A DNA stretch of 45,322 nt from Fidelibacterota bacterium (GTDB lineage: Bacteria; Fidelibacterota; Marinisomatia; Marinisomatales; UBA2128): assembly GCA_046861645.1 (NCBI GenBank), contig JBHHUM010000011.1, positions 1 to 45,322 of the forward strand. Direction: 5' to 3'. Every line of letters begins with the position of its first letter. The stretch's first letter is position 1. Positions 1,469 through 26,690 of this stretch are shown here, in pieces. The notes beneath the pieces were generated by a model, which was not told the DNA's origin, ran no database searches, and saw only the letters and a program-made list of their open reading frames with translations. The translations under genes and the position numbers were made by a program.

Positions 1469-2914
1469 TTAGGCTACAGTCTTTACCGTAATATCGAGAA
1501 GAAATCCAGGTACAATCCCTAACAGGAGTACCACCGCAACCAGAAGTACAATTAGTCCCACAGTTAAAATACCGGCAACCGGACGGAAGACTTCTACTTC
1601 CTCTCGCATGTACATGTTCACTACCAACCGGAGATAGTAGTAGACTGACACAAGAGTGTTTAAGACAGCAATGATTACCAGCCAGATGTATCCTTTCGCC
1701 ACTACAGCGGAAAAGAGTCCATACTTGGCGGCAAACCCAGCCGTAGGCGGAAAACCTGCCAGCGAGATCATGAAGAGAGCCATAGCGGCTGAGAGCCATG
1801 GGTGCCGGGAGGCAAGTCCCCGATAGTCCTCAAATGCTACACCGTGTTCCTCCCTCTCTGCTACAGCAATGATGGCAAAGGCGCCCAGGTTCATGGCAGA
1901 ATAGACCACCAGATAGAAGAGTATGGCACCCCGACTGGCACTGTCCAACACCAGCACACCCATAGCCAGATAACCAGCATGGGAGATACTGGAGAAGGCG
2001 AGCATCCGCTTTACATTAGACTGCACCAGCGCAGAGATGTTACCAACAGTCATGGTCAGTGCGGCCAAGATCCAGAGTAGAATCTGCCATTCGCCATGAA
2101 CCTCAGGGAAAGCCGTTGTAAAGACCTTTAACAGGGCTCCGAAACCGGCCGCTTTGGGCGCCGTACAGAGAAATGCTGTCACCGTTGTGGGTGCTCCCTG
2201 ATATACATCCGGCGACCACATGTGGAACGGCGCCAGAGCTACCTTAAAGGCAAAACCGATGAGCAACAAGCCGATCCCGAGCGAGAGGAAAACATCTGAA
2301 AGAATAGTTCCGGAAGTGATAGCCGAGGCAATTCTATCAAAGTTCGTTGTCCCTGTAGCTCCGTAGGTCAAAGCCGCTCCAAAGAGGAAGAATCCGGTGG
2401 CGAAAGCGCCCAGCAGGAGGTACTTCAACCCGGACTCGTTGCTGTAGAGATTGTGCCGCAGGAAGCCCACCAGTACATAGAGTGACAGAGAAAGAAGTTC
2501 CAGTCCAAGGAAGACAATCACCAAATCGTTGGCCTGCGTCATGAGCATCATCCCGATAACGGCGAAAAGTATGAGAGCCGGATATTCTCCCCGGGACTCA
2601 CTCTCCTTTTTCTCCAGGTATCCCTGAGATAGAATCAGCGTCGACAATCCCACAGCCAGATAGAGAAAGTCGAGGAAGATGGAAAAGCGGTTCAGCCGCA
2701 GCATCCCGCCAAATAGGACACGTTCTTCACCTCCAGTCTGTAACAGAGCGCCCCCAGCCAGAACGATACCAATTGCCGCTACGAGCAACATTATCCCTGG
2801 TCGACTCAGCTGGGCCATTTCCAGTGTCAAAACCAGGAGGGCAGTTACTACCAGAATTATCACTGGGGCGCTACCTGCCAGGTCTACAGAGGTGAAATAT
2901 TGACTTAGATCCAT
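1469..2914 (-). CDS. nuoN: NADH-quinone oxidoreductase subunit N (cluster 2)
   Basis: ESGLKYLLLGAFA, FKVALAPFHMWSPDVYQGAP, KRMLAFSSISHAGY, AGFPPTAGF motifs. Confidence 0.96.
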   Translation of the reverse strand: MDLSQYFTSVDLAGSAPVIILVVTALLVLTLEMAQLSRPGIMLLVAAIGIVLAGGALLQTGGEERVLFGGMLRLNRFSIFLDFLYLAVGLSTLILSQGYLEKKESESRGEYPALILFAVIGMMLMTQANDLVIVFLGLELLSLSLYVLVGFLRHNLYSNESGLKYLLLGAFATGFFLFGAALTYGATGTTNFDRIASAITSGTILSDVFLSLGIGLLLIGFAFKVALAPFHMWSPDVYQGAPTTVTAFLCTAPKAAGFGALLKVFTTAFPEVHGEWQILLWILAALTMTVGNISALVQSNVKRMLAFSSISHAGYLAMGVLVLDSASRGAILFYLVVYSAMNLGAFAIIAVAEREEHGVAFEDYRGLASRHPWLSAAMALFMISLAGFPPTAGFAAKYGLFSAVVAKGYIWLVIIAVLNTLVSVYYYLRLVVNMYMREEVEVFRPVAGILTVGLIVLLVAVVLLLGIVPGFLLDITVKTVA

Positions 2915-2918
2915 AATC

Positions 2919-4418
2919 TCAAGTGAAGAAAAGCAATGAAACTACAACAAAAATGGGAATCAGAATGGGAATCGAGTACCTTATCATGTAACCAAAAAAG
3001 CTAGGCATTTTAACGCCGCTCTGTTCGGCGATAGATTTTACCATGAAGTTGGGAGCGTTCCCGATATAAGTGTTGGCTCCCATGAACACCGCTCCCGTAG
3101 AGATTGCCAGCAACGTGTTATGGTGAGTAGTCATCAATTCCAGGGCATTACCACCAGCAGTGTTAAAGAATACCAGATAGGTCGGGGCATTATCAAGAAA
3201 GCTGGATAGAATTCCTGTAGCCCAGAAGTACATATAGTTGATGGGATTGCCACCAGATGAAACCGATTGGATGACGCTTTTCAAGACACCCTGTTCACCA
3301 GCCCGCAGGATGGCAATGGCCGGAATGATGGTAATAAATATTCCCGCAAACAACTTCGCCACTTCCTGTATGGGAAACCAGGAAAAATCGTTCTCCTCCC
3401 GAACCCTTCGTGGTGTCACCTTCCAGCTTACCAGAGCCAACAGTAACAGTAACAGATCCCGAACTACATTTTGCAATTCCATGTGTAATTCGAAGGCGTG
3501 ACCGTTCTGCACAAAGTGATAAAGAGGAATCAATGCACCAGGCCGCCAAAAACCGCTTAGCAACACTGCACCAATAACGCCAACTAAAAGAAAAAAATTA
3601 AATGACCCCTCCAGACCTAACTTTTTCTCATCACGAGGGACCTCTGCATCAGGTAACACCTCCTTCTTAAAGTAATAGGAATCCAAGGTGTAGAAAATGA
3701 TAAGTAACAGGGTGACAACGAATATCATAGGAATGAACATGGCACTGGTGGTCCAGAAAAAATCCACTCCTTTCAGAAAACCTAGAAAGAGGGGCGGATC
3801 GCCCAAGGGCGTCAGTGAGCCACCGATATTGGCCACTAAAAAAATAAAAAACACGATGACGTGAACTTTATGTTTCCGTTGCATATTAGCTCTCAGCAGC
3901 GGTCGGACGATCAACATGGCAGCTCCAGTAGTACCCATCCAACTGGCGAGGATAGTACCTACCAGGATAAGTCCGGTATTCAGGATAGGAGTTCCTACCA
4001 GGGTTCCGATCAGACGGATCCCTCCTGAAATGGTAAAAAGTGCTAGCAGCAATATGATAAACGGGAAATATTCCAAAAACATCGCATGGAAAAGTTCATA
4101 GGTGACAACCTGAAGATTAAACTCGAATATCATGGGAATTAGTAACACCAGGGCCCAGAAAGCCGATACCTTTCCAAAGTTATGATGCCAGAATTGTGGT
4201 GCAATCAAAGGGAAAATGGCTATGGAGAAGAGAATCCCCGCAAAGGGAAAAGCCCATGGTAATCCTAACTCATCACCCGGTAGAGGGGAATGGTGCACAT
4301 CAGAACTCTCCACGAGGGTCTCTTGCTGAAGAATCTGATTATCATGAAGAGTATCTCCCCCCCAACTGAGTGCGGGAATTGTGCAAAAAATCAGCAGCAG
4401 TAGAATCGGCTTTTTCAC
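2919..4418 (-). CDS. Ion-transporter superfamily membrane protein (putative sodium:proton antiporter, CitMHS_2/DUF1646-like)
   Basis: Polytopic; GTTGAAML, VANIGGSLTPLGDPPLFLGFLKGV, SSFLDNAPTY, GANTYIGNAPNFMV motifs; GTG start overlaps the nuoM stop; N-terminal signal-like segment. Confidence 0.85.
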   Translation of the reverse strand: MKKPILLLLIFCTIPALSWGGDTLHDNQILQQETLVESSDVHHSPLPGDELGLPWAFPFAGILFSIAIFPLIAPQFWHHNFGKVSAFWALVLLIPMIFEFNLQVVTYELFHAMFLEYFPFIILLLALFTISGGIRLIGTLVGTPILNTGLILVGTILASWMGTTGAAMLIVRPLLRANMQRKHKVHVIVFFIFLVANIGGSLTPLGDPPLFLGFLKGVDFFWTTSAMFIPMIFVVTLLLIIFYTLDSYYFKKEVLPDAEVPRDEKKLGLEGSFNFFLLVGVIGAVLLSGFWRPGALIPLYHFVQNGHAFELHMELQNVVRDLLLLLLALVSWKVTPRRVREENDFSWFPIQEVAKLFAGIFITIIPAIAILRAGEQGVLKSVIQSVSSGGNPINYMYFWATGILSSFLDNAPTYLVFFNTAGGNALELMTTHHNTLLAISTGAVFMGANTYIGNAPNFMVKSIAEQSGVKMPSFFGYMIRYSIPILIPIFVVVSLLFFT

Positions 4419-5965
4419 TCCAGTTCCTCCTCAGATTCTCCTTCAAAGTATACCAGTGGAACGATTTCTCTCTCTACAGTTGCGGTTTGATAATCCTTCA
4501 GCAATTTGTTCACGGACGGGTCAATCTTCTCTAAAAACGGCTGAGGATAAACACCCAACCCGAACAGCAAGGCTACTATGGGTCCGATAGCTATCCACTC
4601 CCGGGGAACTAGATCCATTAATTTCACATTTTCACCACCCACAGGACCAAAGAAAACTCGTTCTACCATCCAGAGCAGATAGACCGCTGCCAAGATGATG
4701 CCTAGAGCCGCAACGACCACTGCTGTGGGATGGGATTTATAGGAACCAGACAGGATTAGAAATTCACCTACAAAGCTGTTCAATCCAGGTAGTCCCAACG
4801 AAGCCAACACCACAATCACAAAGCAGGTAGAATAGTGCGGGATAGACCGTGCCAGACCACCGAAATCTGTTATTATCCGCGTGTGCCTTCGATCATAGAG
4901 TATCCCTACCAAGAGGAAAAGGGCGCCTGTAGCCAGACCGTGGTTGACCATCTGAATGATACTTCCCGACAGACTCCGGGAAGTAAGAGCAAAGATACCC
5001 AGCACGACAAACCCCAGGTGACTGACACTGGAAAACGCTACTAATCTCTTCAGATCAGGTTGTACCATTGCCATGAGAGCTCCGTAAATGATTCCTATCA
5101 CTGCCAGAGCAATTACCAGCGGTATGAATTCCTTCATACCCAGGGGGAAAAGGGGCAGGCAGAAGCGGAGGAAACCGTAGCCTCCCATTTTCAGTAAGAC
5201 TCCAGCCAGAAGGATGGAGCCAGCAGTGGGGGCTTCAGTGTGCGCATCAGGTAACCAGGTATGTAACGGAAACAGGGGGATTTTAATGGCGAAGCTGAGG
5301 GCAAAGGCCAGGAAGAGCCAATACTGAGTTCCCGACGAGAGAATCAGACGGCTGATGTCTTCGTAAGCCAAGGAAGATGCCCCCAGCTGCGCCAAAGTCT
5401 GACTATAGAGATAAATGATCCCAACCAGCATTAACAGAGAGCCTAACATGGTAAATAGTACGAATTTAAGTGCGGCATAAATACGTTTACCTGATCCCCA
5501 GACACCAATGAGGAAATACATGGGAATCAACATCGCTTCCCAGAATATATAAAAAAAGAAAAGATCGAGGGCGCTAAAAACTCCTATCATGGCACTCTCC
5601 ATTATTAACAGAGAGATCATAAACCCCATCACCCCTTTTTGCACAGACTGCCAAGACGCCAGCACCGCCACAGGTACCAGCAACGAGGTCAGTAGAATCA
5701 GGAAGAGTGAGATGCCGTCAATTCCTACAAAATAGGTGATGCCCCAAGCGGGTATCCACGATACCTGCTCAACAAATTGAAAGTCAGCCGTTGCTTTGAA
5801 ATTAATAAATAGAAATAGCGATATAATGAATTCTACCCCGGAAATGAACAGTACTCCCCACCTGGTCGAGTCAGCTCCAGCTTTGTGCATAAGTAGCAGT
5901 AATCCCGCTCCGGTTAGAGGTAATAGAATCAGAACCGAAAGAATATGTTCACTCAACCAGTTCAT
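4415..5965 (-). CDS. nuoM: NADH-quinone oxidoreductase subunit M (cluster 2)
   Basis: FWEAMLIPMY, AIKIPLFPLHTWLPDAHTEAPT, LLKMGGYG, NSFVGEF motifs. Confidence 0.97.
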   Translation of the reverse strand: MNWLSEHILSVLILLPLTGAGLLLLMHKAGADSTRWGVLFISGVEFIISLFLFINFKATADFQFVEQVSWIPAWGITYFVGIDGISLFLILLTSLLVPVAVLASWQSVQKGVMGFMISLLIMESAMIGVFSALDLFFFYIFWEAMLIPMYFLIGVWGSGKRIYAALKFVLFTMLGSLLMLVGIIYLYSQTLAQLGASSLAYEDISRLILSSGTQYWLFLAFALSFAIKIPLFPLHTWLPDAHTEAPTAGSILLAGVLLKMGGYGFLRFCLPLFPLGMKEFIPLVIALAVIGIIYGALMAMVQPDLKRLVAFSSVSHLGFVVLGIFALTSRSLSGSIIQMVNHGLATGALFLLVGILYDRRHTRIITDFGGLARSIPHYSTCFVIVVLASLGLPGLNSFVGEFLILSGSYKSHPTAVVVAALGIILAAVYLLWMVERVFFGPVGGENVKLMDLVPREWIAIGPIVALLFGLGVYPQPFLEKIDPSVNKLLKDYQTATVEREIVPLVYFEGESEEELE

Positions 5966-7845
5966 ATCAGGAAGACATAAAAGACCATCAGAATTACACC
6001 AAGGAAAATGATGGCGGCATAGTTTTGTATCACTCCAGTTTGTATTCTGCTGAATAAGCTGGAGACTTTTGATGTCACCGAACCCAGACCATTTACTATA
6101 CCATCGATAACACGGATATCAAATCCCTTCCAGATAGCTTCACTCCCTTTGCGGGCAGGTTGCACAATGGTGACTTCGTAAAGTTCGTCCACATAATATT
6201 TGCGAGCTACAAATCGCCGCCAACCTTTAGGTATCTCGTCTAATTGACCAGCGCTATATCGTCGGAAAGCATAATAAAGTCCCACCAATGCTCCCAGGAT
6301 AGAAAGTATCATAGCAGACACTTCTGATAAAACTAAATCTTGGGAAAAGTGACCGTTGACATCCTCTATCGTTCCAGAAAGGAAATGGTGAAAGTGGTTA
6401 TTTCCACTTAATACCTCCGGAATACCTATCCAACCACCGACCACCGAGAATCCAGCTAATACCATTAAAGGTACAGTCATAACAGTTGGGGATTCATGGG
6501 GAGAGACCTCTTTCGACCAGCGTTGTCCACCATGGAAGGTCTGGAAGAGTAACCGGAACATATAGAATGCGGTCAGGATGGCCGTAAGCAGTCCCGTTAA
6601 AAAGATGAAATCGCCACCTTTCGAAGAGCTGTAAGTGTACCACAGGATCTCATCCTTGGAGAAAAAACCAGAGAGGAGAGGCAATCCCGATATCGCCGCC
6701 ACTCCAATCAGCATAGTCCAATATGTCTGGGGCATCTTGCTTTTTAAGTTCCCCATCCGGCGCATGTCTTGCTCACCTCCCATTCCATGGATAACACTCC
6801 CGGCTCCCAGAAAGAGAAGTCCTTTGAAGAAAGCGTGAGTCATCAGGTGAAAGATGGCCGCACCAAAAGCACCTACACCAGCAGCCGCAAACATGTAGCC
6901 TAATTGACTAATAGTGGAGTAGGCCAGTACTTTTTTGATATCATTTTCAAAAATAGCCATTGTAGCGGCAAAAAAGGCTGTCATTATGCCAATCACAGCC
7001 ACCAGGGATAGGGCTGTAGTCGAGGCAATAAAAAGTACACTGCACCGGGCCAGGAGGTAAACTCCAGCTGTAACCATAGTTGCCGCGTGAATAAGAGCAC
7101 TCACAGGAGTAGGTCCAGCCATGGCATCTGGGAGCCAGACATAGAGAGGTATTTGAGCTGATTTTCCTACTGCTCCAAGAAAAAGAAGCAGGGTTATAGT
7201 GGTCACTAATCCTGTATCCAGTGCTCTTATCTGGTCAACTTGAAGAATATCACTGAATGCCAGGGAATCCAGGTTTACAAGAATAAGTATCATTCCTAAG
7301 AGAAACCCAAAATCACCGATCCGGTTAACAATAAAAGCCTTCTTCCCCGCTGTCGCCTTAACAGGATCCTCAAACCAGAATCCAATAAGCAAATATGAGC
7401 AAAGACCAACTCCCTCCCAGCCTAGAAAAAGTAGAAGCAGGTTATCAGCCATTACAAGATTGAGCATCATGAATATGAATAGATTAAGATAAGCAAAATA
7501 GCGCTGTATCCCTGGGTCACCTTTCATGTAACCCATGGAGTAGAGATGAATGAGGAAACCTACTCCTGTAACGATCAATACCATTACCAGTGCCAGGGCA
7601 TCCAGAGTATAGGCGATAGGAACTTGATAGGATCCGAGGGGTAGCCAGATAAACAGGGTTTGGGTAAGCGATTCATGATTTTCCAGGTAAACGTCCAGAC
7701 TCAGCAGCCCTAAACAGAAACTGATGCCCACCATTGTTGAGGCAATTACACCAGAGAAAAATTCACTCAATTTCTTACCCAGCAACCCGTTCAGCAAGAA
7801 GCCAACTAGAGGGAGAAACGGTATGAGCCAGATCGTGTTGTCCAT
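5962..7845 (-). CDS. nuoL: NADH-quinone oxidoreductase subunit L (cluster 2)
   Basis: GWEGVGLCSY, GKSAQIPLYVWLPDAMAGPTPVSALIHAATMV, FSKDEI motifs; standard-length C-terminal helix. Confidence 0.97.
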   Translation of the reverse strand: MDNTIWLIPFLPLVGFLLNGLLGKKLSEFFSGVIASTMVGISFCLGLLSLDVYLENHESLTQTLFIWLPLGSYQVPIAYTLDALALVMVLIVTGVGFLIHLYSMGYMKGDPGIQRYFAYLNLFIFMMLNLVMADNLLLLFLGWEGVGLCSYLLIGFWFEDPVKATAGKKAFIVNRIGDFGFLLGMILILVNLDSLAFSDILQVDQIRALDTGLVTTITLLLFLGAVGKSAQIPLYVWLPDAMAGPTPVSALIHAATMVTAGVYLLARCSVLFIASTTALSLVAVIGIMTAFFAATMAIFENDIKKVLAYSTISQLGYMFAAAGVGAFGAAIFHLMTHAFFKGLLFLGAGSVIHGMGGEQDMRRMGNLKSKMPQTYWTMLIGVAAISGLPLLSGFFSKDEILWYTYSSSKGGDFIFLTGLLTAILTAFYMFRLLFQTFHGGQRWSKEVSPHESPTVMTVPLMVLAGFSVVGGWIGIPEVLSGNNHFHHFLSGTIEDVNGHFSQDLVLSEVSAMILSILGALVGLYYAFRRYSAGQLDEIPKGWRRFVARKYYVDELYEVTIVQPARKGSEAIWKGFDIRVIDGIVNGLGSVTSKVSSLFSRIQTGVIQNYAAIIFLGVILMVFYVFLI

Positions 7846-7846
7846 C

Positions 7847-8152
7847 CTATCCCTTCATCAGGTTGATTTCATCCACATAAATAGTCTGCTTATTCCTGAA
7901 CAGGACCACAATAATAGCCAGTCCCACCGCCACTTCTGCTGCAGCTAAGGTCATCACCAGAAAAACAAATACCTGTCCATCTACACTATTGTAATACCGG
8001 GAGAAACCTACCAGAGCCAGATTGACAGCGTTCAACATCAACTCAATGGACATGAAAATCACCAAAGCGTTCCGCCGGAAAAGAACACCCACTACCCCTA
8101 TAGTAAAGAGGGACCCACTCAGGATAATCACATGTTCAAGGGGAACGACCAT
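7847..8152 (-). CDS. nuoK: NADH-quinone oxidoreductase subunit K (cluster 2)
   Basis: IELMLNAVN and [10 protein letters not shown] motifs, 101 aa. Confidence 0.97.
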
Positions 8153-8652
8153 TATGTTCTCCTTTTAGCCAAATAGACAGTACCAATCAGAGCTACCAAC
8201 AGTAGCAGGGATGCTACTTCGAATGGAAGCAGGTAGGTAGAGAACAGAGCCGTACCAAGAGCCCTCGCCGACCCTGCTGTGAATATTCCTGGGGCTTGAT
8301 GAAGTGCAGTATTACTGCCTACCATTAACAAGAGTAATCCACCAATAAAAAGCACTATCAGGATTAGTGAAGCTGACCGTTGTAATCGTATCAGCTTGGG
8401 GAATGCTTCTTCCCTGGCTGTATTTAATAACATGATTACGAACAGGAACAGGACCATAATAGCGCCGGCATATACCAATATTTCCAAAACCGCCAGAAAA
8501 TAAGCTTCCAAAAGCAGGTACATCACTGCTAATGAAAAGAAAGTTAACACTAACAGAATTGCACTAAAAACCGCATTGCGATTCAGTACTACTGCCAGGG
8601 CTGAAGCTAACGTCACAGCAGCGGCAAGGTAAAAGAGGGTGCTAGACAGCAT
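8152..8652 (-). CDS. nuoJ: NADH-quinone oxidoreductase subunit J (cluster 2)
   Basis: [17 protein letters not shown] and [13 protein letters not shown] motifs. Confidence 0.96.
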
Positions 8653-8667
8653 TCAAAACTCCTGCTG

Positions 8668-8720
8668 AGGTGTAAGAGGATGGAATGTAGAGGAGTTATG
8701 GTGTTGGGGTGCTGGGGTTA
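8668..8720. repeat. Degenerate ~8-bp-period repeat tract, inverted partner of the tract at 9130-9180
   Basis: G-rich tract (atggaatgtagaggagt..ggtgttggggtgctgggg) partly complementary to the C-rich periodic tract at 9130-9180 (reverse complement atggaagcaggggaat). Confidence 0.5.
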
Positions 8721-8729
8721 AAATGAGTT

Positions 8730-9128
8730 TCATCTGCTACCCTCCAGTATCCATGGTTTTGGTTTGTCTATCATATTCACAAGTTTTCCTATTATGTTAT
8801 CATACTTTTTATAGTGATTTGCTTTTGTCCTTTCTCCAAGATAATCGCCATTTTCGAAAAACTCTAACCAAGTCTGCATCTCAGCGGTTTCAGCCTCAGC
8901 TTCATTCAATTTGTTAACGAAAGCCCCCTCTTATTATCTTCTTCAAGCCTTGGCAACGTTTGAGTAAACGGACCGAGATGACTTTCGCATTTGGTCAGAG
9001 AGAGAAAACTTTTCTTCAGTTAAGAATTTTTTTGTTAGTCTGAATATATCCATGACAGCATCGAAAGCTAACTTATGTATATCCAAATCTTCATGACTCC
9101 AAACAAGTTTCCTTTCATCACTCTTCAT
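8730..9128 (-). pseudogene. Four-helix-bundle protein (23S rRNA intervening-sequence protein family) pseudogene
   Basis: HEDLDIHKLAF..EEKFSLSDQMRKSSRSVYSNVAKA, then in-frame stops (TGA, TAA TAA), then EGAFVNKLNEAEAETAEMQTWLEF, then frameshifts to YDNIIGKLVNMIDKPKPW, stop at 8730. Confidence 0.85.
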
Positions 9129-9665
9129 CTATTTCTCCCTTTTTCCAAGCTCTTGTATTCCCCTGCTTCCATTCTCCCCAGCGTAATAATTACGGTCCTT
9201 TGTCATTTCGTATACTTCCAAAAGTCCATCTTTATCTATCCAGAAGGCCTCTCTGGTATAATCTGCAAAATCGTAGATTTCAGTTAATTCAATAGCCTTT
9301 TCTGGACAGGCCATTTCGCAGAAACCACAAAAGATGCATCTCAGGAGATCGATATTAAACTGCACTGGGTATCGTTCCTTCCCTTCTTCCCAGGGTGAAG
9401 CATCCGGCACAATATGAATACAATGAGAAGGACAGGCAGCCGCACACATCTCACACGCCACACAACGAATGCGACCATCATCATATTTATTCAAACGATG
9501 AAGACCACGATATCCATCTGGCGGTACATGCTTATTATCTGGATATTGGAGGGTCACCTTTTTCTTGAAGATATGACGGAAAGTTACCATTAACCCTTTC
9601 AAAAGGGCGGGGAGATATAGACGATCCCAAAAAGTGGGCTTGTATGTTTTGACGATCGTGGCCAT
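9129..9665 (-). CDS. nuoI: NADH-quinone oxidoreductase subunit I (cluster 2)
   Basis: Two CxxCxxCxxxCP [4Fe-4S] motifs; TLQYP, YRGLH. Confidence 0.96.
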   Translation of the reverse strand: MATIVKTYKPTFWDRLYLPALLKGLMVTFRHIFKKKVTLQYPDNKHVPPDGYRGLHRLNKYDDGRIRCVACEMCAAACPSHCIHIVPDASPWEEGKERYPVQFNIDLLRCIFCGFCEMACPEKAIELTEIYDFADYTREAFWIDKDGLLEVYEMTKDRNYYAGENGSRGIQELGKREK

Positions 9666-9666
9666 A

Positions 9667-10695
9667 TCAGATTGTCAACATTAGAATCCCACCAGTGATG
9701 ATGATATTCAGTAATGCCAGGGGTAACAGTACCTTCCATCCTAACCACATAAGCTGATCATAACGAAAGCGGGGGAACGTCCACCGCACCCAGATATAGA
9801 GAAAAAGGAAGAACCCAGTCTTTATTACAAAAGCCAGTAAAGAAAGAATACCCCCCCAGATTCCCAGAGCAGCCTCATTAATCAGCGGTAGATCCCAACC
9901 TCCAAAAAAGAGCGTCACCGTCAGTGCTGCTGCGGTTACCATATTGGCGTACTCAGCCATAAAGAACATGCTGAATTTCATGCTGCTATATTCCGTATGA
10001 TAACCCCCTACTAACTCCTGTTCAGCTTCGGTCAAATCAAAAGGGAGCCGGTTGGTCTCGGCATATACCGCTACCAGAAAAATCAGAAAGGCCAGCGGCT
10101 GCCGACAGATGTTCCATGAGAAGAGTTCTCCTTGTTGAGCCACTACTATATCATTCAATTCCAGTGAACCAGCCATCATAATGATACTAATAGCCGCCAG
10201 ACCCATGGCTAACTCATAACTGATAAGCTGAGCTGAGGAACGTAATCCTCCTAAAAGTGGATATTTGCTATTAGAGGACCAACCTGCTAAAACCAAGCCA
10301 TACACCCCGACACTGGTCAAGGCAAAAATATAGAGAATACCAATATTCACATTAGCCACCTGTAGTGGAATCTCTCTTCCGAACAGGGAAATAGTCTGGC
10401 CAAAGGGGATGACGGCAAAAGTCATGAGGGCCGGAACAATCAGCATGGCCGGAGCCAGGATATAGATCGGTTTAACCGCCGCTGAGGGAATGATGTCCTC
10501 TTTCATAAGAAATTTTATTCCATCAGCAATGGGCTGTAGAATTCCTTGGGGACCAACACGGTTGGGGCCCAGACGGTCCTGCATGAAAGCAGACACTCGC
10601 CGCTCAGCCAAAGTCATGATCATGACCGCTAGCATTACCCCACTGAAGACAAAGAGAACCTTAACAATCATCACTATAATGGCCAAACCATCCAT
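9667..10695 (-). CDS. nuoH: NADH-quinone oxidoreductase subunit H (cluster 2)
   Basis: ERRVSAFMQDRLGPNRVG, AETNRLPFDL, GYHTEYS, PRFRYDQLM motifs. Confidence 0.97.
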   Translation of the reverse strand: MDGLAIIVMIVKVLFVFSGVMLAVMIMTLAERRVSAFMQDRLGPNRVGPQGILQPIADGIKFLMKEDIIPSAAVKPIYILAPAMLIVPALMTFAVIPFGQTISLFGREIPLQVANVNIGILYIFALTSVGVYGLVLAGWSSNSKYPLLGGLRSSAQLISYELAMGLAAISIIMMAGSLELNDIVVAQQGELFSWNICRQPLAFLIFLVAVYAETNRLPFDLTEAEQELVGGYHTEYSSMKFSMFFMAEYANMVTAAALTVTLFFGGWDLPLINEAALGIWGGILSLLAFVIKTGFFLFLYIWVRWTFPRFRYDQLMWLGWKVLLPLALLNIIITGGILMLTI

Positions 10696-12318
10696 TTAAT
10701 CTGCTCTTTCCTGAATATCGATGTTTAACCCTGCAGTTCCCAGTCTAAAGAAGGTAATGTCCTTGTAATTAGAAATCCGCTCTCCCATTTCTGACAACAC
10801 TTCACTGACATGACTATAATTAAGTACTCGCTTCCCCAATACATTCATCACTTCCATAATAATTGCCCAATCCTGACGGCTGATACCCTGCAGGGGCAGA
10901 GCGGGTCGCAACCACTGGATATGTCCTCTGTCATTAATTAAGGTCCCTTCTCTCTCCAACGGGGCAGCCCCAGGAAGCAGGAGATGAGCTCGCTTTGCCA
11001 AAGACGTCATGGCAAATGTCTGTACTACTAAAAAATCGAGATGGAGCAGTATCTCCTGCCATTCTGCCGATTCCACCCAATGATCACTATTATCAAGAAC
11101 ATACATTAACCTGATCTTTTGCCTTTTGATATCACCGATAACATCCTCTGACAATTCAGGATTTACTGCTTCCATTCCACCCCGATTAGGAGAGCGGTCT
11201 CCACTGATACGGAAACCACCCGGGAATCGAATTTCATCCTCTTCCTCAAGAGGTAATGTTCCCACTATACCTCGTTCTTCCAACACATCGTGCATCAGAC
11301 GGGCAAACATGAATTGCGTTTCGCTGGTGTGGAAAGGTGAAGTGATACCAGCGATGAGATTACTTTTGTCACTTTTCTTACGTCCTAACTTCTCAAATAT
11401 TTCCTTAAACGCCCCCGCCCAACTTATTTCCCGCCAATCATCTCCCTCTCGGATCATAGGTGAAGTTACCCGCTCAAGCTGCTTGTAACCGTGGTAACTA
11501 TAACGACCGATATCACAGATAAAGTGACCATTCACCCGGAGATTCTCACGGGCCGAGATGCGAAATACTTCCCCGTTCTGATGAAATATATCCACGTTAC
11601 AACCCACACTACACTGCTGGCAGACTGAAGGCTGTCGATCGAGATTCCAGATGCGGTTGCGATGGATATAATCTTTGCTCAACAGGGCACCTACCGGGCA
11701 AATATCGGTGACGTTACCCGCAAGGAGGTTGTCCAGGGGTTTGTCCTCCATCACTGATATCTTGGCGTTATAACCCCGTTGTTGAACAAACAATTCACTG
11801 GTACCAGATATTTCCCGGGTAAAACGGACGCAGCGAGTACACATAATACAACGATTCTGATTGATTACTACATCCGCTCCTAAATCCTCAGCAGCTCGAA
11901 CCCGCTTATCTTCTTTAAACCGACTGTGAGCCCGGCCGTAGCGGAAGGAATAATCCTGTAGATCACACTCACCTGCCTGATCGCAGACAGGACAATCCAG
12001 AGGGTGATTCAGCAGAAGGAACTCCAATGTGTCCTGCCGGGCTTTCCGCACAGTTTCAGACTGTGTAGTAACAATCATATCATATTTGCCGTCCACTTTC
12101 CTCTCCAACGGCATATTACCAATCCGGGTATTACACGCCACCTGCAGCTTAGCCATCCCCGCCACTTCTACCACACACATCCGACAACTCCCCACTACCT
12201 CCAGAGCAGGATGGTAACAGTAATGAGGTATCTCAATACCATTAGCCAGAGCAGCAGTCAGCACACTGGTGCCAGGGGTCACCTCAATTTCCAGTTCATC
12301 AATTTTAAGCAGAGGCAT
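10696..12318 (-). CDS. nuoG: NADH-quinone oxidoreductase subunit G (short, 540 aa)
   Basis: CYHP..CRMC (N1b), HPLDCPVCDQAGEC (N5), CIMCTRC (N4), CQQCSVGC..C (N7-like). Confidence 0.94.
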   Translation of the reverse strand: MPLLKIDELEIEVTPGTSVLTAALANGIEIPHYCYHPALEVVGSCRMCVVEVAGMAKLQVACNTRIGNMPLERKVDGKYDMIVTTQSETVRKARQDTLEFLLLNHPLDCPVCDQAGECDLQDYSFRYGRAHSRFKEDKRVRAAEDLGADVVINQNRCIMCTRCVRFTREISGTSELFVQQRGYNAKISVMEDKPLDNLLAGNVTDICPVGALLSKDYIHRNRIWNLDRQPSVCQQCSVGCNVDIFHQNGEVFRISARENLRVNGHFICDIGRYSYHGYKQLERVTSPMIREGDDWREISWAGAFKEIFEKLGRKKSDKSNLIAGITSPFHTSETQFMFARLMHDVLEERGIVGTLPLEEEDEIRFPGGFRISGDRSPNRGGMEAVNPELSEDVIGDIKRQKIRLMYVLDNSDHWVESAEWQEILLHLDFLVVQTFAMTSLAKRAHLLLPGAAPLEREGTLINDRGHIQWLRPALPLQGISRQDWAIIMEVMNVLGKRVLNYSHVSEVLSEMGERISNYKDITFFRLGTAGLNIDIQERAD

Positions 12319-13619
12319 TAGACCGTAACTCCAGTGGTCTGGACACAGGAAACAAATTCCGTTCTAAATTTTTCCACAAAACTTCTCACCGGCCATGCTA
12401 CTGCTTCCCCGAAAGGACAGATAGTCTTACCGTAGCTCCCCTGGGAAAAATCGATCAGTCCGCCAATGTTGTCGGTGATTTCCAGGAGCATTTCAATATC
12501 CTTGAGTGTACCATTCCCCTGGTAAAGTCGAGAGAGTATCTTCACCAGCCAGGAAGTTCCCTCCCGGCAGGGAGTGCACTGACCGCAAGACTCGTGGGCA
12601 TAGAACCGGGCAATATTCAAACACGCACGAACCATATCCACTGATTCATCCAAAACTATGATTCCCGCTGAGCCGAGCATAGTACCGGCAGCAGCCAGTT
12701 CCTCAAAGTCCATATGCAAACCGGCAACCTCTTCAGTTGTAAGAAGGGGTGACGAAGAACCTCCAGGGAAAACCGCCTTCAGCTTCCGATTTGCAGTGAT
12801 ACCACCCGCCCGGTCGTAAATCAATTCTTCCAGAGCAATCCCCATGGGTTCCTCGTAAACTCCCGGTTTATTGACCCGGCCAGAAATGCAAAAAAGTTTG
12901 GGGCCAGGTCCTTTTTCAGGTCCAATTGCCCGGAACCAATCCCCTCCCCGGTTGATGATATGTGGTAAATTGGCTAATGTCTCCACATTGTTTACAATGG
13001 TGGGGGCTTGCAGATACCCAGCGATAGCCGGAAAAGGGGGTTTAATTCGTGGCCAGCCCCGTTTACCTTCCAGAGATTCCAGTAAACCGGTCTCTTCCCC
13101 GCAGATATAAGCTCCTGCGCCCCGGTGAATAACCACTTCCAAATGATAATCAGTACCGAGAATATCCTCCCCTAAGAACCCGGCAGTTCTGCTCTCAGCC
13201 ACTGCTTTTTGTAGCACCTCATACTCTCTGTAAAACTCGCCACGGATATAAACAAACGCTAGATGAGCTTGGATGGCATATGCAGCAATAATCATTCCTT
13301 CCAGCATCTGGTGAGGGGTCTTGTTAATCAGTAACCTATCCTTAAAAGTCCCCGGTTCACTTTCATCAGCATTGCAAATAAGATATTTCGGCTTGTCTAT
13401 ATCTCTGGGAATGAAACCCCACTTGACACCGGTTGGAAATCCAGCACCACCCCGACCGCGTAAATTGGAAGCCTTTACCTCTTCGACAACTTCTTCAGGT
13501 GACAGTAACTTCACGACTTTCTCTAAAGCGGTGTAACCCCCTACTGAGCGGTAAAATTCCAGGGAGTGGCAATTCTCCGCATAGATATGTTCAGTTAGAA
13601 CTGGTTTAAAATTCTTCAT
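12318..13619 (-). CDS. nuoF: NADH-quinone oxidoreductase subunit F
   Basis: GRGGAGFPTG, NADESEPGTFKD, GAGAYICGEE, ESCGQCTPCREG motifs. Confidence 0.98.
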   Translation of the reverse strand: MKNFKPVLTEHIYAENCHSLEFYRSVGGYTALEKVVKLLSPEEVVEEVKASNLRGRGGAGFPTGVKWGFIPRDIDKPKYLICNADESEPGTFKDRLLINKTPHQMLEGMIIAAYAIQAHLAFVYIRGEFYREYEVLQKAVAESRTAGFLGEDILGTDYHLEVVIHRGAGAYICGEETGLLESLEGKRGWPRIKPPFPAIAGYLQAPTIVNNVETLANLPHIINRGGDWFRAIGPEKGPGPKLFCISGRVNKPGVYEEPMGIALEELIYDRAGGITANRKLKAVFPGGSSSPLLTTEEVAGLHMDFEELAAAGTMLGSAGIIVLDESVDMVRACLNIARFYAHESCGQCTPCREGTSWLVKILSRLYQGNGTLKDIEMLLEITDNIGGLIDFSQGSYGKTICPFGEAVAWPVRSFVEKFRTEFVSCVQTTGVTV

Positions 13620-15357: not shown

Positions 15358-15860
15358 GAATGGTTGCCTTTCTTGAGTCCTTCCACAACTGGAAAGTTGC
15401 GGCGTTCACCTTTACCCTGACGAGGAAAATCCTTCCGCAGGGGGTGACCTTTAAACTCATCGGGATTCATAATCCTGATGAGATTAGGGTGTCCACTAAA
15501 TTCTATTCCGAAAAGATCAAATACTTCCCGTTCCTGCCAATCAGCCGTCTTCCAGAGTGAAACTACTGATGGAATAACAGGTTTCTTCTCAGGGATGTAT
15601 GCTTTGACGACCAGACGCTGCTCATGTTCATGTGATAATAGATGATATACAACGACAAACCTTTCATAACCACCCAGGTTCAGATTATCCACGGCGGTCA
15701 GGTCAGTCAAGAAGTTGAATCCTGTTTCCTTGAGAAAAGAGAGAATATTGATGATATCATGTCCTTGTATATGAATAGTCAAGTCTGTCTCTTCAGTTAT
15801 TTCAATAATGAACTCCCCATAGCGATCCTGTAAAATGGAAAGAATTTCCGGGCGAGTCAT
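15354..15860 (-). CDS. nuoC: NADH-quinone oxidoreductase subunit C (cluster 2)
   Basis: [31 protein letters not shown] signature. Confidence 0.97.
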
Positions 15861-16354
15861 TGATTTACACCTTTAGAAGAATAATCAGAGAACTTCTCGT
15901 TCTCCACCAACTTCTGAATCTTTATCAGACCATCAAGGAGTCCCTCAGGTCGGGGTGGACACCCCGGTACATATACATCCACCGGAAGAAATTGATCCAC
16001 TCCCTGGATAACACTATACGTATCAAACACTCCCCCACTGGAGGCGCAAGCGCCCATGGAAATTACCCATTTCGGTTCTGGCATTTGTTCATAGATACGC
16101 TGAAGAACCGGCATCATTTTAATCGTTATGCGACCGGCAACAATAAGCAAGTCCGATTGACGGGGGGAAAAACGAATTGCCTCAGCACCAAAGCGGGCCA
16201 TATCTGACCGGGAAGCTAAAACAGCCATTAATTCAATTCCACAGCAAGCTGTTCCAAAGGGCATGGGCCATAGAGAATTTTTTCGAGCCCAGTTAACCGC
16301 TGCCTCGACCGTAGTAGTAAGCAAATTTGATTTTATTTCATGTTCTATTCCCAT
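15857..16354 (-). CDS. nuoB: NADH-quinone oxidoreductase subunit B (only copy in window)
   Basis: [27 protein letters not shown] (cluster N2 ligands). Confidence 0.98.
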
Positions 16355-16713
16355 TCTAAAGCCCCTTTTTTCCAGACAAATACGAAACCGAACAGGATTA
16401 TCAACATGAATAAGAGCATTTCCAGAAATATGAAGGAACCTGATTTCACGAAATCCTTAAAAATGACCGCCCAGGGGAATAAAAATACAATTTCGATATC
16501 GAAAATGACAAAAAGGAGAGCAATCAGAAAGTATTTTACTGAAATTCGTACCCTGGCTGGTGCCAAGGGATCAACACCGGATTCATAGGAAGATAATTTT
16601 ACAGCAGATTTAGTCTGGGGTCCGAGTAAATGAGAGAGTATCAGCAGCAAAAAGGCAAAACCAGCTGCTAAAAGAAAGACTAAAAGAAGAGGTGTATAGT
16701 TTTCCAGTATCAT
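16345..16713 (-). CDS. nuoA: NADH-quinone oxidoreductase subunit A (cluster 2)
   Basis: [25 protein letters not shown] motifs. Confidence 0.97.
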
Positions 16714-18275: not shown

Positions 18276-18283
18276 ACTTTACT

Positions 18284-19831: not shown

Positions 19832-19852
19832 ATCCTGCAATTCCTCTCTTTC

Positions 19853-21898: not shown

Positions 21899-22200
21899 CG
21901 TTTCAAGCTCCTGGCTTCATCTACATTCACTGTGCCAAACTTGTTATAAAGATTAATAATGATTGCTAGTGCTACAGCAGCTTCAGCAGCAGCCATGATA
22001 ATGACAAACATGGCAAATATATGACCAGAAAGATTCATGCTCCCGAAACAGGCAAAAGCTACGAAATTCACATTTGCTGAGTTCAGGATTAATTCCACTC
22101 CCATAAGTACGGCAACACCATTCCGGCGGGTGATAACTCCATACAGCCCCAGACTGAACAAGATAGCACCAATCGTCAAATAAGTATGTAAATCGTTCAT
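21895..22200 (-). CDS. nuoK: NADH-quinone oxidoreductase subunit K (cluster 1)
   Basis: VELILNSAN, AAAEAAVALA motifs. Confidence 0.96.
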   Translation of the reverse strand: MNDLHTYLTIGAILFSLGLYGVITRRNGVAVLMGVELILNSANVNFVAFACFGSMNLSGHIFAMFVIIMAAAEAAVALAIIINLYNKFGTVNVDEARSLKR

Positions 22201-22694
22201 GATTCACTCTTTCGCGATAACATGGCGGCTCCCACTAAGGCAGCTAGTAATAAAACTGAAGCCACTTCAAACGGTAGTAGATAATCAATCAACAAAAGTT
22301 TACCGATTCCTTCCACAGTGCTGTTTGGAGCTAAAGTCGTTTCCAAATACCATGGTGACGTAGTAATCATTCTGTAAAGTCCGACAAAGATCAACAAAAC
22401 CACAAACCCTCCTACGGTTTTCTGCATGCTGGTATGAGAAAGTCGTATGTCAGAGATTCTATGGGTCAACATAATACCAAAGACAATTAAGACCAGGATC
22501 CCCCCTACATAAATAACGATTTGTGTGCCTGCAATGAAATCAGCCAATAAAAATACATACAAGCCAGCTATACCCATGAGAGTGAAAAAAAGAGCAATCG
22601 CAGAGTACACCAATCGCTGGGATGTTACTACATAAAGAGCTGATCCTATGGTTAGCGCAACAACTAAGAAGAAAGCCAGTTCAGAGAGACTCAC
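22197..22694 (-). CDS. nuoJ: NADH-quinone oxidoreductase subunit J (cluster 1)
   Basis: [22 protein letters not shown] motifs. Confidence 0.96.
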   Translation of the reverse strand: MSLSELAFFLVVALTIGSALYVVTSQRLVYSAIALFFTLMGIAGLYVFLLADFIAGTQIVIYVGGILVLIVFGIMLTHRISDIRLSHTSMQKTVGGFVVLLIFVGLYRMITTSPWYLETTLAPNSTVEGIGKLLLIDYLLPFEVASVLLLAALVGAAMLSRKSES

Positions 22695-23302
22695 GATTCC
22701 GTCTCCTCTCTTGTTTCAGTTGCAGCTGATTCTTTACGCAGTTTCTCTTCAGCATAAGAGGTTACAATATCAGCCGGTACTTTGGAAAATTTGAAAATCA
22801 AATTATTACGGTCATATTCAGAAAACTCATAATCCATGCCATGTTTACTGGAATGAGGACCCCCGGTCATAAAAATACACTCCTCCGGACAGGGGTAAGT
22901 GCAGAGGTTGCAGTAACAGCATTCTGTCATGTCTATATCGAACCGGGTAACTAAAAGTCTTTTCTGAGTACCGTGAGACGTAACACCCCGATGATTCGCT
23001 CCAGGAATATCTTCCCCCTTTCCCACTTTTTCAGTATCAATTTTTATACACTGCACAGGACAGGCGCGTTCACATTTCCGACACCCAATACAATCATCCA
23101 TATCCACAGTAAGACGGGAGCGAATAACGTTGTAACTGTCTTCATTGAAACCGATATGCCGCTCTGGACGAGGCCATCTTTCCACCGGATATTGGAGAGT
23201 AACAAAACCTTTACGAATGCGCAAAAGGTGTCCAAGTGTTACCCTCATCCCTGTAATCAAGGTTGTTAGGGAAAGCCAAATGTTCGTAAAGTATCTGCTC
23301 AT
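22691..23302 (-). CDS. nuoI: NADH-quinone oxidoreductase subunit I (cluster 1)
   Basis: CIGCRKCERACP and CCYCNLCTYPCP motifs; TLQYP; lies between nuoH and nuoJ. Confidence 0.93.
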   Translation of the reverse strand: MSRYFTNIWLSLTTLITGMRVTLGHLLRIRKGFVTLQYPVERWPRPERHIGFNEDSYNVIRSRLTVDMDDCIGCRKCERACPVQCIKIDTEKVGKGEDIPGANHRGVTSHGTQKRLLVTRFDIDMTECCYCNLCTYPCPEECIFMTGGPHSSKHGMDYEFSEYDRNNLIFKFSKVPADIVTSYAEEKLRKESAATETREETES

Positions 23303-23311
23303 GTTCCTATC

Positions 23312-24397
23312 CTAATTCACCAGCATGTCCCACAAGCCAACACCAAAAAGATTCAGAAGTGAAAGGGGGAGAAAGAATTTCCAACAGACTCGCATAAGTT
23401 GATCTGTTCTCAGCCGCGGGAAGGTCCAGCGGAACCACATCATCAGTAATATCAGAAAAATGACTTTACCAAAGAACCAGATCAATCCCCAGATGGGACC
23501 ACCTAAATAACCAGGGATAGGACTCTGCCAGCCACCTAAAAAAGCCACCGTGGTTACACCAGAAACGATAAATACGTTGGCATACTCGCTTAAAAAGAAA
23601 AAGGCCCAACGCATACCGGAATACTCGGTATGAAACCCTGCAACTAACTCTGATTCTGCCTCAGGAAGGTCGAACGGTGTACGGTTCGTTTCCGCCACAC
23701 CGGAGATAAAAAAGAGAAAGAAAGCCAAGAGCGAAAAGGGATTATTAAAAATGAACCAGTTGGGTAGAATTCCCCAGATAGTTCCTCCTTGAGCTTTAAT
23801 GATTTCCTGCATTTGGAGCGATCCAGCTAACATGATAACAGTTAGAATAGAAAGAGCAGCAGGGATTTCATAGCTGATAATTTGGGCAGCAGAACGCATG
23901 GCTCCATAAAGAGACCATTTATTATTGGATCCGTAGCCAGCCAAAATGATTCCTATAACACCTATGGAGCTCACGGCAAGAATGAAAAAGACCCCGATGT
24001 TGAAGTCAGCCGCCAATATAAATTGATTAAACGGGATAGCAGAGATGGCCACAAAGGCAGCTATGAAAATAATAAAAGGAGCCAGCACAAATAATTTTCT
24101 ATCGGCCAGTGCCGGGATAACATCCTGTTTGATGATAAGTTTTAGAGCATCTGCTACCGTTTGTAATAAACCCCACTTACCGGCATGTAAACCCACACCC
24201 TGACCCATAGGACCCAGCCGATCCTGCATAAATGCTGAAACTTTCCGTTCGGCGTATACAGCCACGATAGCATTAACTGCCAAAAAGAGGAACAGAGGCA
24301 ATCCCACCAGTAGAACCGCCAGGATGAATTGTGTTCCCCGGGACATGGTTGCCAACCAGGAAATTCCAGAAAATTGGTCTAGAAAGAAATCAATCAT
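23312..24397 (-). CDS. nuoH: NADH-quinone oxidoreductase subunit H (cluster 1)
   Basis: ERKVSAFMQDRLGP, AETNRTPFDLPEAESELV motifs; ATG at 24397 overlaps the nuoD stop (TGATG). Confidence 0.96.
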   Translation of the reverse strand: MIDFFLDQFSGISWLATMSRGTQFILAVLLVGLPLFLFLAVNAIVAVYAERKVSAFMQDRLGPMGQGVGLHAGKWGLLQTVADALKLIIKQDVIPALADRKLFVLAPFIIFIAAFVAISAIPFNQFILAADFNIGVFFILAVSSIGVIGIILAGYGSNNKWSLYGAMRSAAQIISYEIPAALSILTVIMLAGSLQMQEIIKAQGGTIWGILPNWFIFNNPFSLLAFFLFFISGVAETNRTPFDLPEAESELVAGFHTEYSGMRWAFFFLSEYANVFIVSGVTTVAFLGGWQSPIPGYLGGPIWGLIWFFGKVIFLILLMMWFRWTFPRLRTDQLMRVCWKFFLPLSLLNLFGVGLWDMLVN

Positions 24398-25542
24398 CAG
24401 CGGTCGATCTCCCCTAACACAATATCGAGGCTTCCTAAAATGGCTAGGACGTCGGAAATCATCCACCCCTGAGCAATTTCATTAATACAACTCAGCGCCG
24501 TAAATGCAGGTGAACGCATCTTCAGCCGGAAAGGGATGGGCTTTCCATCACTGACAATATAGTATCCCAATTCACCCCGAGGTGTCTCTGTACGGGCATA
24601 AATTTGTCCCTTGGGAGGACGAATTTTCTTGGGCAGGGCTTCATATACGTCACCATCTCTGGGGAGCTGATCGAGAGCCTGACGTACAATCTTAGCACTC
24701 TCTTCGATTTCCCGAACGCGGACGTAATATCGATCCCAACAATCGCCAACAGTTCCCATTGCACCGGTACCAATGGGAATATCGAATTCAAAGCGATCAT
24801 AGATAGCATAAGGGTCGTCTTTCCGCAAGTCCCATTTCACTCCCGACCCCCGTAAATTGGGCCCAGTAACTCCATAACTAATCGCAACATCCGGCGGGAG
24901 AACACCTACATCAGCCGTACGTTCAATGAATATCTTATTGAAGGTAAGGATGTTATTGTACTCTTCAATCTGAGGCTCAAAATAGTCAAGAAATTCATAC
25001 ACTTTTTCCACCCAACCCACTGGTAGATCGTGAGATACTCCCCCTACCCATATATAGTTGTAGAGGAGTCGTGCGCCACATAACATTTCAAAAAGGTCTA
25101 GTATCCTTTCCCGATCCCGAAAACAATAAAGAAAAGGGGTAAATGCGCCTACATCCAGTCCAAAAGTACCTATGGCAAGTTGGTGACTGGCAATCCGATT
25201 TAATTCAGCAACAATCACTCTGATGTATTCCACTTTTTCAGGTACTTTAATATCCATGAGCCGTTCCACTGCTACAGCATACCCCAAGTTGTTATTCATG
25301 GCGGCGATATAGTCGCATCGATCGGTATAGGGGATTACCTGTTCGTAAGTCACATTTTCACAATGCTTCTCAAAACATCGGTGAAGATACCCTATGACAG
25401 GAGTGACATGAGTGACGATTTCACCATCTGTCCTTACCTTCAACCGGAGTACACCATGGGTGCTGGGATGTTGCGGTCCAAAGTTGAGAACCATTTCCTC
25501 AGCATGTACACTGCCAAGCTCCATATCGAGAACTTTGGTCAC
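24397..25542 (-). CDS. nuoD: NADH-quinone oxidoreductase subunit D (cluster 1)
   Basis: FGPQHPSTHGVLRL, DRCDY, ETPRGELG, GEIDR; no NiFe CxxC motifs. Confidence 0.97.
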   Translation of the reverse strand: MTKVLDMELGSVHAEEMVLNFGPQHPSTHGVLRLKVRTDGEIVTHVTPVIGYLHRCFEKHCENVTYEQVIPYTDRCDYIAAMNNNLGYAVAVERLMDIKVPEKVEYIRVIVAELNRIASHQLAIGTFGLDVGAFTPFLYCFRDRERILDLFEMLCGARLLYNYIWVGGVSHDLPVGWVEKVYEFLDYFEPQIEEYNNILTFNKIFIERTADVGVLPPDVAISYGVTGPNLRGSGVKWDLRKDDPYAIYDRFEFDIPIGTGAMGTVGDCWDRYYVRVREIEESAKIVRQALDQLPRDGDVYEALPKKIRPPKGQIYARTETPRGELGYYIVSDGKPIPFRLKMRSPAFTALSCINEIAQGWMISDVLAILGSLDIVLGEIDR

Positions 25543-26036
25543 TCCCAGCCCTCTTTCATCTTGGGAATTTCTATCCCATGATAAGATGAGGGAAACTCGT
25601 AGTCCTTTCGAAGAGGATATCCCTCCCAGTCATCAGGTAAAAGGATACGGCAGAGATTGTGATGACCCTCGAATTCAATTCCGTACATATCAAAAGTCTC
25701 CCGTTCAAACCAGTCAGCAATTTTCCAGAACTGCTCTACAGAAGGAACTACTGGATTCTCCCGGGGAAGAATAATACGAATCTCTATTTTGTGATTATGT
25801 TGCATGGAGTGCAGATTATAGATTACACCCAGATCACTTTCTTCTCCAAAATCCACACCGGTTATGCACATCAATGCATCGAAAAAGAGGTTTTCATCAT
25901 TGCGAAGAAACTCAGCAAAATTTTTCCAGTCAGCAGGAGCCACGAGGATGTGATCTGCTGGAGCCTCTTCTCCAGTATCGATAAAACCCTCTCGAAAGTG
26001 TTCGTTTATATAGTTTACCTGTTCTGTAAAATCCAT
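25539..26036 (-). CDS. nuoC: NADH-quinone oxidoreductase subunit C (cluster 1)
   Basis: ADWFERETFDMYGIEFEGH..GYPLRKDY signature. Confidence 0.96.
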   Translation of the reverse strand: MDFTEQVNYINEHFREGFIDTGEEAPADHILVAPADWKNFAEFLRNDENLFFDALMCITGVDFGEESDLGVIYNLHSMQHNHKIEIRIILPRENPVVPSVEQFWKIADWFERETFDMYGIEFEGHHNLCRILLPDDWEGYPLRKDYEFPSSYHGIEIPKMKEGWE

Positions 26037-26053
26037 ATTATTTCAGGGATCAC

Positions 26054-26500
26054 TCAGGCAATAGTTCCCCTCATGGTGGAATCTGCCGGCTCCCTGGTTA
26101 CATTAAGTTTGCGGTACCGGCCTCGACCATAAGGAACAGAAATTTTCACCCAATCCAAATCGCCTTTGCGCCAGACATAAACCAATCCTACAGCAAGGAT
26201 GGCAAGAAAGATCATCATCTCCACGAAAGCAAAAAGACCCAATTCCTTATAGACCACAGCCCAGGGAAAAAGAAAGACAACTTCCACATCGAAGATAATA
26301 AATATGAGCGCTATCACGTAGAATCGTATGTTGAACTGAACCCAGGCGCTACCTTCAGGGTCTTCACCACATTCATATGTGGTCAGTTTATCACGTGATC
26401 GGTTTTGTGGAGAGAGGATGCGTTGTAACACAAGGGGGATCGCTACCATAACGATCCCGAGGAGTACAAATACAAAGGCTGTGCCGAAATTCTGATACAT
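26054..26500 (-). CDS. nuoA: NADH-quinone oxidoreductase subunit A (cluster 1)
   Basis: [26 protein letters not shown] motifs; ATG at 26500 (MYQNF). Confidence 0.95.
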
Positions 26501-26677: not shown

Positions 26678-26690
26678 TAAAATTCATGAA

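Follow-up and report, generated by a model that had tools for sequence, protein, structure and literature searches.

We analysed a stretch of 45,322 nucleotides (the window) that corresponds to positions 1 to 45,322 of contig JBHHUM010000011.1 of a metagenome-assembled genome (MAG) of Marinimicrobia (SAR406), and in which two gene clusters for respiratory complex I (nuo) lie in tandem. The first (cluster 1) lacks nuoB and the genes for the NADH-oxidising module, nuoE, nuoF and nuoG, and the second (cluster 2) is complete. Very probably, cluster 1 encodes an 11-subunit headless complex I whose nuoB has been relocated to another part of the genome, and cluster 2 an independent canonical 14-subunit enzyme occupying the slot that relatives use for nqr (nqrABCDEF-apbE, Na+-NQR). 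The source assembly (G000) has 2.51 Mb in 184 contigs and is 94.5% complete. It was compared with 40 relatives of the same order, from 16 families (41 genomes in all), which were screened with the profiles PF01058, PF00329 and PF00507; the matching loci were then compared.

A cluster without nuoB, and a second nuoB in the genome

Every one of the 25 genes of the nuo region lies on the minus strand. Cluster 1 runs from position 26500 down to 16794, and by Pfam it has the order nuoA-C-D-H-I-J-K-L-M-N:

26054-26500, minus: nuoA1, 148 residues from a conserved ATG (maximal open reading frame, ORF, to 26566); PF00507, 136.6 bits
26037-26053, minus: nuoA1-nuoC1 spacer, 17 bp from the nuoA1 stop to the nuoC1 ATG; position of nuoB in related operons (A-B-C in 26 relatives)
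25539-26036, minus: nuoC1; PF00329, 150.3 bits
24397-25542, minus: nuoD1; PF00346; alignment with Thermus Nqo4 at E 2e-108
23312-24397, minus: nuoH1; PF00146; the likely ATG overlaps the nuoD1 stop by 1 nt (maximal ORF to 24466)
22691-23302, minus: nuoI1; two CxxCxxCxxxCP motifs, both kept
22197-22694, minus: nuoJ1; PF00499
21895-22200, minus: nuoK1; PF00420
19853-21898, minus: nuoL1; PF00361 and PF00662
18284-19840, minus: nuoM1; PF00361
16794-18275, minus: nuoN1; PF00361; final gene of the 11-subunit cluster

The start of nuoA1 was set by alignment with 36 cluster-1 NuoA proteins, and the orthologues of NuoH1 have 348-361 residues. No cluster-1 protein matched PF01058 (NuoB), and there is no nuoB remnant at the junction of nuoA1 and nuoC1, where 17 bp are too short to hold one. 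All ten genes are full length and keep their catalytic residues. His29 and Tyr78 of NuoD1 align with H38 and Y87 of Thermus Nqo4, the quinone-site residues as numbered in passages of PMC4758237. The original prediction, made from the window alone, had listed the same ten intact genes, the 17-bp gap without a nuoB remnant and the quinone-site His and Tyr of NuoD1; the Pfam assignments, the junction sequence and the Nqo4 alignment all agree with it.

The same prediction had counted only one nuoB, which is true of the window but does not extend to the genome. When the entire assembly was searched with PF01058, three matches were returned: nuoB2 of cluster 2, an intact gene for a protein of 177 residues on the 58-kb contig C129 (G000:C129:1565-2098, minus strand), and a 374-residue ORF on contig C16. 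The C16 ORF has a twin-arginine-type leader and adjoins a hydrogenase large-subunit-like ORF, and we read the two as the small and large subunits of a [NiFe] hydrogenase. The C129 gene is the orphan nuoB that had been put forward as the fallback to a shared NuoB. It stands alone, upstream of a glutamate-cysteine-ligase (GCL)-like gene and divergent from a malic-enzyme gene (NCBIfam). Its product has Cys34, 35, 99 and 130 in the pattern of N2 ligands, a feature of which is the tandem Cys-Cys according to passages of PMC4758237. The orphan NuoB is 80-92% identical to the NuoB encoded within 26 A-B-C-D-H operons from other families of the order, as opposed to 51.7% identical to NuoB2. The nearest public NuoB locus, at 89% identity, is from a Candidatus Marinimicrobia MAG. 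With ten genes in the window and nuoB on C129, the 11-subunit set is complete genome-wide. Searches of G000 by tblastn with the Nuo proteins of the window revealed no further copy of nuoA, C, D, H, J, K, L, M or N outside the window, and a weak NuoI1-like match (29% identity) on contig C57.

The relocated NuoB would assemble with NuoA1, C1, D1, H1 and I1-N1 into a quinone-reducing, proton-pumping enzyme. Cluster 1 could alternatively be a decaying, non-functional operon that has lost nuoB, with the C129 gene serving something else: the operon lacks nuoB, without which complex I cannot work, and in one relative nuoA1 is split in two fragments (G003:C2:3541-3815), through either a frameshift or an error in the MAG. 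We regard such decay as very unlikely, because besides being full length with their catalytic residues, the cluster-1 genes have orthologues 59-93% identical across five families. The orphan NuoB is the best-conserved subunit of all (83-95% identity between G000 and 11 relatives with an orphan of their own), and its four N2 ligands are kept in all 12 orphans. Moreover, no NuoD- or NuoH-like gene was found by tblastn outside the window, and the [NiFe] hydrogenase of C16 comes with a small subunit of its own.

A single relocation of nuoB in the order

The arrangement of the window recurs among the relatives. In 12 of the 41 genomes (G000 included), belonging to families f1, f3, f4, f5 and f8, nuoA directly precedes nuoC and nuoB is found separately; 26 genomes have the order A-B-C-D-H, and three genomes of about 1 Mb each (family f12) have no complex I. 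An orphan nuoB is present in 12/12 of the A-C genomes and in 0/26 of the A-B-C genomes.

NuoB and NuoD are a textbook pair, and both were used for phylogenetic reconstruction. The NuoB tree (IQ-TREE, careful mode) had 49 rows, 11 of cluster-2 and 38 of cluster-1 type; we left out B2 of G012, truncated at a contig end, a 46-residue fragment of G038, and all PF01058 matches in ORFs that exceed NuoB in length (253-403 residues), which were taken as hydrogenase small subunits. Cluster-1-type and cluster-2-type proteins split at 100/100. All 12 orphans form a single clade (100/99) nested among the in-operon cluster-1 NuoBs; the orphan groups only with cluster-1 NuoBs, and NuoB2 only with those of cluster 2. 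The NuoD tree (quick mode, 48 rows, leaving out D1 of G026, a 76-residue fragment at a contig end) mirrors this result, as NuoD1 from the 12 B-less clusters makes up one clade (SH-like approximate likelihood ratio test, SH-aLRT, 98) nested among those of clusters that keep nuoB, and NuoD2 is separate (100). This comparison of the NuoB phylogeny with NuoD1 and NuoD2 had been suggested as a check along with the original prediction. Since the two trees agree, nuoB was relocated once, in one sub-lineage of the order.

The original prediction had proposed a mix-and-match system, in which the NuoB2 of the window, and perhaps its NuoEFG, is shared by two alternative membrane arms. Although the window does contain one nuoB and one set of nuoEFG, C129 carries a cognate nuoB of cluster-1 type, and the genome has two nuoB genes and one hydrogenase small subunit rather than a single nuoB to be shared. 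A shared subunit should also be equidistant from, or have co-evolved with, both partner sets, whereas NuoB2 shares only 52% identity with NuoB of cluster-1 type and the tree separates the two types with full support. Furthermore, three relatives (G006, G010 and G021) carry a B-less cluster and an orphan nuoB but no cluster 2. In G010 (97% complete, 20 contigs) nothing but the orphan matches PF01058; G006 and G021 each have one further match, a 321-residue ORF that is longer than any NuoB, so that the orphan is their sole match of NuoB size. Considering also that 18 of the 38 genomes with an 11-subunit enzyme have no match to the NuoF family (see below), we find sharing between the two arms highly improbable. 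A second nuoB grouping with cluster 1 was the very observation that the prediction had named as speaking against it, and this is what the C129 gene is.

The prediction had also allowed for an assembly artefact at the nuoA1-nuoC1 junction; in a fragmented MAG of 184 contigs, assembly or binning might have deleted nuoB. However, 12 separate genomes, spread over five families, share this junction. It is also bridged without indels by contigs (Logan) of 4/4 runs, which come from one sample, maybe the source of the MAG, and are thus not independent. In addition, the termini of NuoA1 and of the orphan NuoB differ consistently from those of their counterparts in A-B-C operons. Taken together, an artefact is barely conceivable.

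These termini give hints on how a single relocation of nuoB may have occurred. All orphan NuoBs have a changed N-terminus in common, and a basic C-terminal extension of about 15-25 residues is present in 12/12 orphans and in 0/26 in-operon NuoBs. The C-terminal tail of NuoA1 is longer in B-less clusters than in A-B-C operons, and no NuoB-like sequence was seen in the alignment of this longer tail. The altered termini fit a break slightly inward of either end of nuoB and the later recruitment of new ends, and the presence of the NuoB tail in all 12 orphans suggests its retention by selection. Synteny extends over the orphan locus (nuoB, GCL-like gene, gamma-glutamyl hydrolase-like gene): the GCL-like gene lies beside nuoB in 10/12 genomes, and the malic-enzyme gene in 9/12. 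The GCL-like gene is also present in genomes with nuoB in the operon, with different genes upstream and no malic-enzyme gene there.

Some points weigh against an 11-subunit enzyme with a relocated nuoB next to an independent 14-subunit enzyme. The outgroup genomes showed no clean empty site, in which the malic-enzyme gene would adjoin the GCL-like gene and nuoB would be lacking. The relocated nuoB would be transcribed separately, and yet scans for promoters and terminators at the orphan nuoB, in the nuoN1-nuoA2 gap and upstream of nuoA1 yielded sites no more than shuffled sequence did. All genomes, that of the window included, are MAGs, in which the absence of a gene means that it was not found, rather than proven absence. 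Finally, it is from the genes that the orphan NuoB is predicted to pair with cluster 1 rather than with cluster 2, and that NuoB2 would be unable to substitute for it.

A bolder possibility is that the relocation was not neutral. The N2 subunit, under its own promoter, might serve as a control point for the assembly of the headless complex I, and the basic NuoB tail and the lengthened NuoA1 tail might provide a contact specific to the lineage or the place where the donor docks; at its boldest, the free-standing NuoB might also enter the 14-subunit enzyme. We consider this unlikely.

Cluster 2 in the nqr slot

Cluster 2 runs from position 16713 down to 1469:

16345-16713, minus: nuoA2; PF00507; opens the 14-subunit cluster, 80 bp downstream from nuoN1
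15857-16354, minus: nuoB2; PF01058; Cys37, 38, 103 and 132
15354-15860, minus: nuoC2; PF00329
14152-15357, minus: nuoD2; PF00346
13616-14095, minus: nuoE2; PF01257; NADH-oxidising module
12318-13619, minus: nuoF2; PF01512 and PF10589; NADH-oxidising module
10696-12318, minus: nuoG2; PF10588, PF22117 and PF00384; NADH-oxidising module
9667-10695, minus: nuoH2; Pfam
9129-9665, minus: nuoI2; Pfam
8152-8652, minus: nuoJ2; Pfam
7847-8152, minus: nuoK2; Pfam
5962-7845, minus: nuoL2; Pfam
4415-5965, minus: nuoM2; Pfam
2919-4418, minus: CitMHS_2 transporter gene; PF16980, 625 bits; between nuoM2 and nuoN2
1469-2914, minus: nuoN2; PF00361; 61-77% identical to N2 of relatives

All 14 genes nuoA-N were recognized by Pfam, including the flavin mononucleotide (FMN)/NADH domain of NuoF, consistent with the complete cluster of the original prediction, which had made no mention of the CitMHS_2 gene. 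Paralogues of the two clusters are 28-49% identical, and the clusters are therefore old paralogues, not the product of a recent duplication. Cluster 2 would encode a canonical NADH:quinone oxidoreductase that is independent of cluster 1 and has its own NuoB.

Where relatives have cluster 1 alone, six genes identified as nqrA-F (NCBIfam) come after nuoN1, then apbE in some loci, and finally the CitMHS_2 gene. The ApbE-like gene was found after nqrA-F in loci L143-L146 (with an NCBIfam name in L143), and no ApbE-like ORF was seen there in L142, from G010. Across the order, nqrA is present in 29 of the 41 genomes, and the 12 without it are exactly those with cluster 2; a tblastn search of G000 with NqrA-F and ApbE gave no match. 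Given this mutual exclusion and the identical neighbours, cluster 2 takes the place that nqr has in relatives, with nuoN1 on one side and the CitMHS_2 gene on the other. The gene nuoN1 directly precedes nuoA2 in G000, G001, G002, G003, G007, G024 and G036, and, by coordinates, also in G012 and G005.

All four combinations of nuoB position with either nqr or cluster 2 occur: nuoB in the operon with nqr in most families, nuoB in the operon with cluster 2 in f10, relocated nuoB with nqr in f4 and in G010, and relocated nuoB with cluster 2 in f1, f3, f5 and part of f8. The two changes were thus independent.

The CitMHS_2 gene is a resident of this locus in 36 of the 41 genomes; G024 and G036 had no match to it, and its protein received no NCBIfam name at E <= 1e-10. 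It may correspond to the NhaD-type antiporter gene in the complex I operon of Rhodothermus marinus. Its place relative to nuoN2 varies, with the order M2-N2-transporter in f10 (G038, G012 and G026; L183-L185 among the loci compared) and M2-transporter-N2 in f1, f3 and f5. In genomes that lack cluster 2 the transporter gene adjoins nqr-apbE, and it thus appears that N2 and the transporter exchanged places locally.

Cluster 2 shows further variation among genomes. In the window, the 476-bp gap between nuoI2 and nuoJ2 has two short ORFs of 61 and 59 residues (8730-9128, minus strand), which match the first and second halves of PF05635 (23S rRNA-intervening-sequence protein) and thus look like a split or broken insert; the gap is only 30-40 bp in G007 and G038. 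These two genomes have two NuoL-like genes in cluster 2, of about 500 and 590-603 residues, 26-29% identical to L1 or L2 (L147 18232-19734 with L148 3-1775; L183 5308-8841). Their M2 is 48-49% identical to that of the window, as against 74-84% for F2, H2 and K2, which indicates that the distal membrane arm of cluster 2 differs between lineages. In G003 there is about 1.3 kb of extra DNA between nuoA2 and nuoB2 (L108 718-2026). The remaining ~19 kb of the window (26649-45322) contain non-nuo genes on both strands.

Electron donor, known systems and novelty

The family of NuoF and RnfC (PF01512) had no match in 21 of the 41 genomes, 18 of which carry the cluster-1-type enzyme (18/38); one of these 18, G012, is 87% complete and has its cluster 2 cut at a contig end. 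The occurrence of the 11-subunit enzyme in genomes without a NuoF-family match indicates that it is a stand-alone unit for which the sharing of NuoEFG is not needed, and the suggestion that one EFG set may serve both arms finds no support here. Instead of NADH, the electron donor of the headless enzyme would probably be ferredoxin or flavodoxin; flavodoxin is suggested as a possible donor in passages of Getz et al. 2018 (PMC6143742). G000 also has a NuoF-like gene on contig C48, 43% identical to F2, and NuoE- and NuoG-like genes on contig C174, which may form a separate diaphorase or hydrogenase module.

The passages of Getz et al. 2018 (mBio, PMC6143742) that deal with NQR and complex I report that most Marinimicrobia encode a non-canonical NDH (nNDH) without NADH-reductase subunits, that epipelagic clades keep the ancestral NQR, and that in mesopelagic clades NQR was replaced by a canonical complex I (cNDH) via lateral transfer. 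Cluster 1 would be this nNDH, common in the phylum. The window agrees with that account in the phylum, in the pair of a headless and a canonical 14-subunit enzyme, and in having cNDH for NQR (here exclusive, 12 versus 29 genomes), so that its two-cluster content was already known in kind. The passages of the main text on NQR, NDH, nuo or complex I do not mention a relocated nuoB, a tandem cNDH in the nqr slot, or a transporter between nuoM and nuoN. A literature search for relocated or missing nuoB, including passages of PMC4758237, did not bring up a description of this arrangement either. The relocation of nuoB, the location of cluster 2 exactly in the nqr slot, and the order nuoM2-transporter-nuoN2 hence appear to be undescribed.

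Cluster 1 resembles the 11-subunit complex I of Bacteroidota, Chlorobi and other phyla (A, B, C, D and H-N, no NuoEFG), as presented in parts of Moparthi and Hagerhall 2011 (PMC3144371), but differs from it in that nuoB lies away from the other ten genes and its product has a new N-terminus and a basic C-terminal tail. The closest NuoB loci outside Marinimicrobia, at 61-69% identity, are A-B-C-D-H-I-J operons of Ignavibacteria, Melioribacter and Bacteroidetes MAGs. Two nuo clusters with one nuoEFG set are likewise noted in PMC4453560 (2015; Table 1, footnote b, the part considered here); unlike in that system, the EFG-less enzyme of Marinimicrobia also occurs in genomes without a NuoF-family match, so that EFG sharing is not required. 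Stand-alone nuoB genes, with no other nuo gene within ~4 kb, were found in six loci (L012, L015, L020, L021, L023 and L026) from Thermoflexibacter, Planctomycetaceae, Pirellulaceae and an uncultured bacterium. Relocation of nuoB thus recurs across bacteria; the planctomycete and Thermoflexibacter cases are independent events, in other phyla and with neighbours different from those of the Marinimicrobia locus.

The novelty of the window is therefore confined to details of gene order, in what is a pair of ordinary respiratory enzymes rather than a system with shared subunits. It also carries a caution, namely that when an operon seems to be "missing" an essential subunit, the whole genome should be searched for it before the sharing of subunits is put forward as a mechanism. 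For the bioenergetics of Marinimicrobia the addition is modest: a headless complex I, together with NQR or a canonical complex I and the CitMHS_2 gene, constitutes one respiratory locus, in which the canonical enzyme replaced NQR in place and from which one sub-lineage moved nuoB, once. Its new termini could make the relocated NuoB useful as a phylogenetic marker of that sub-lineage.

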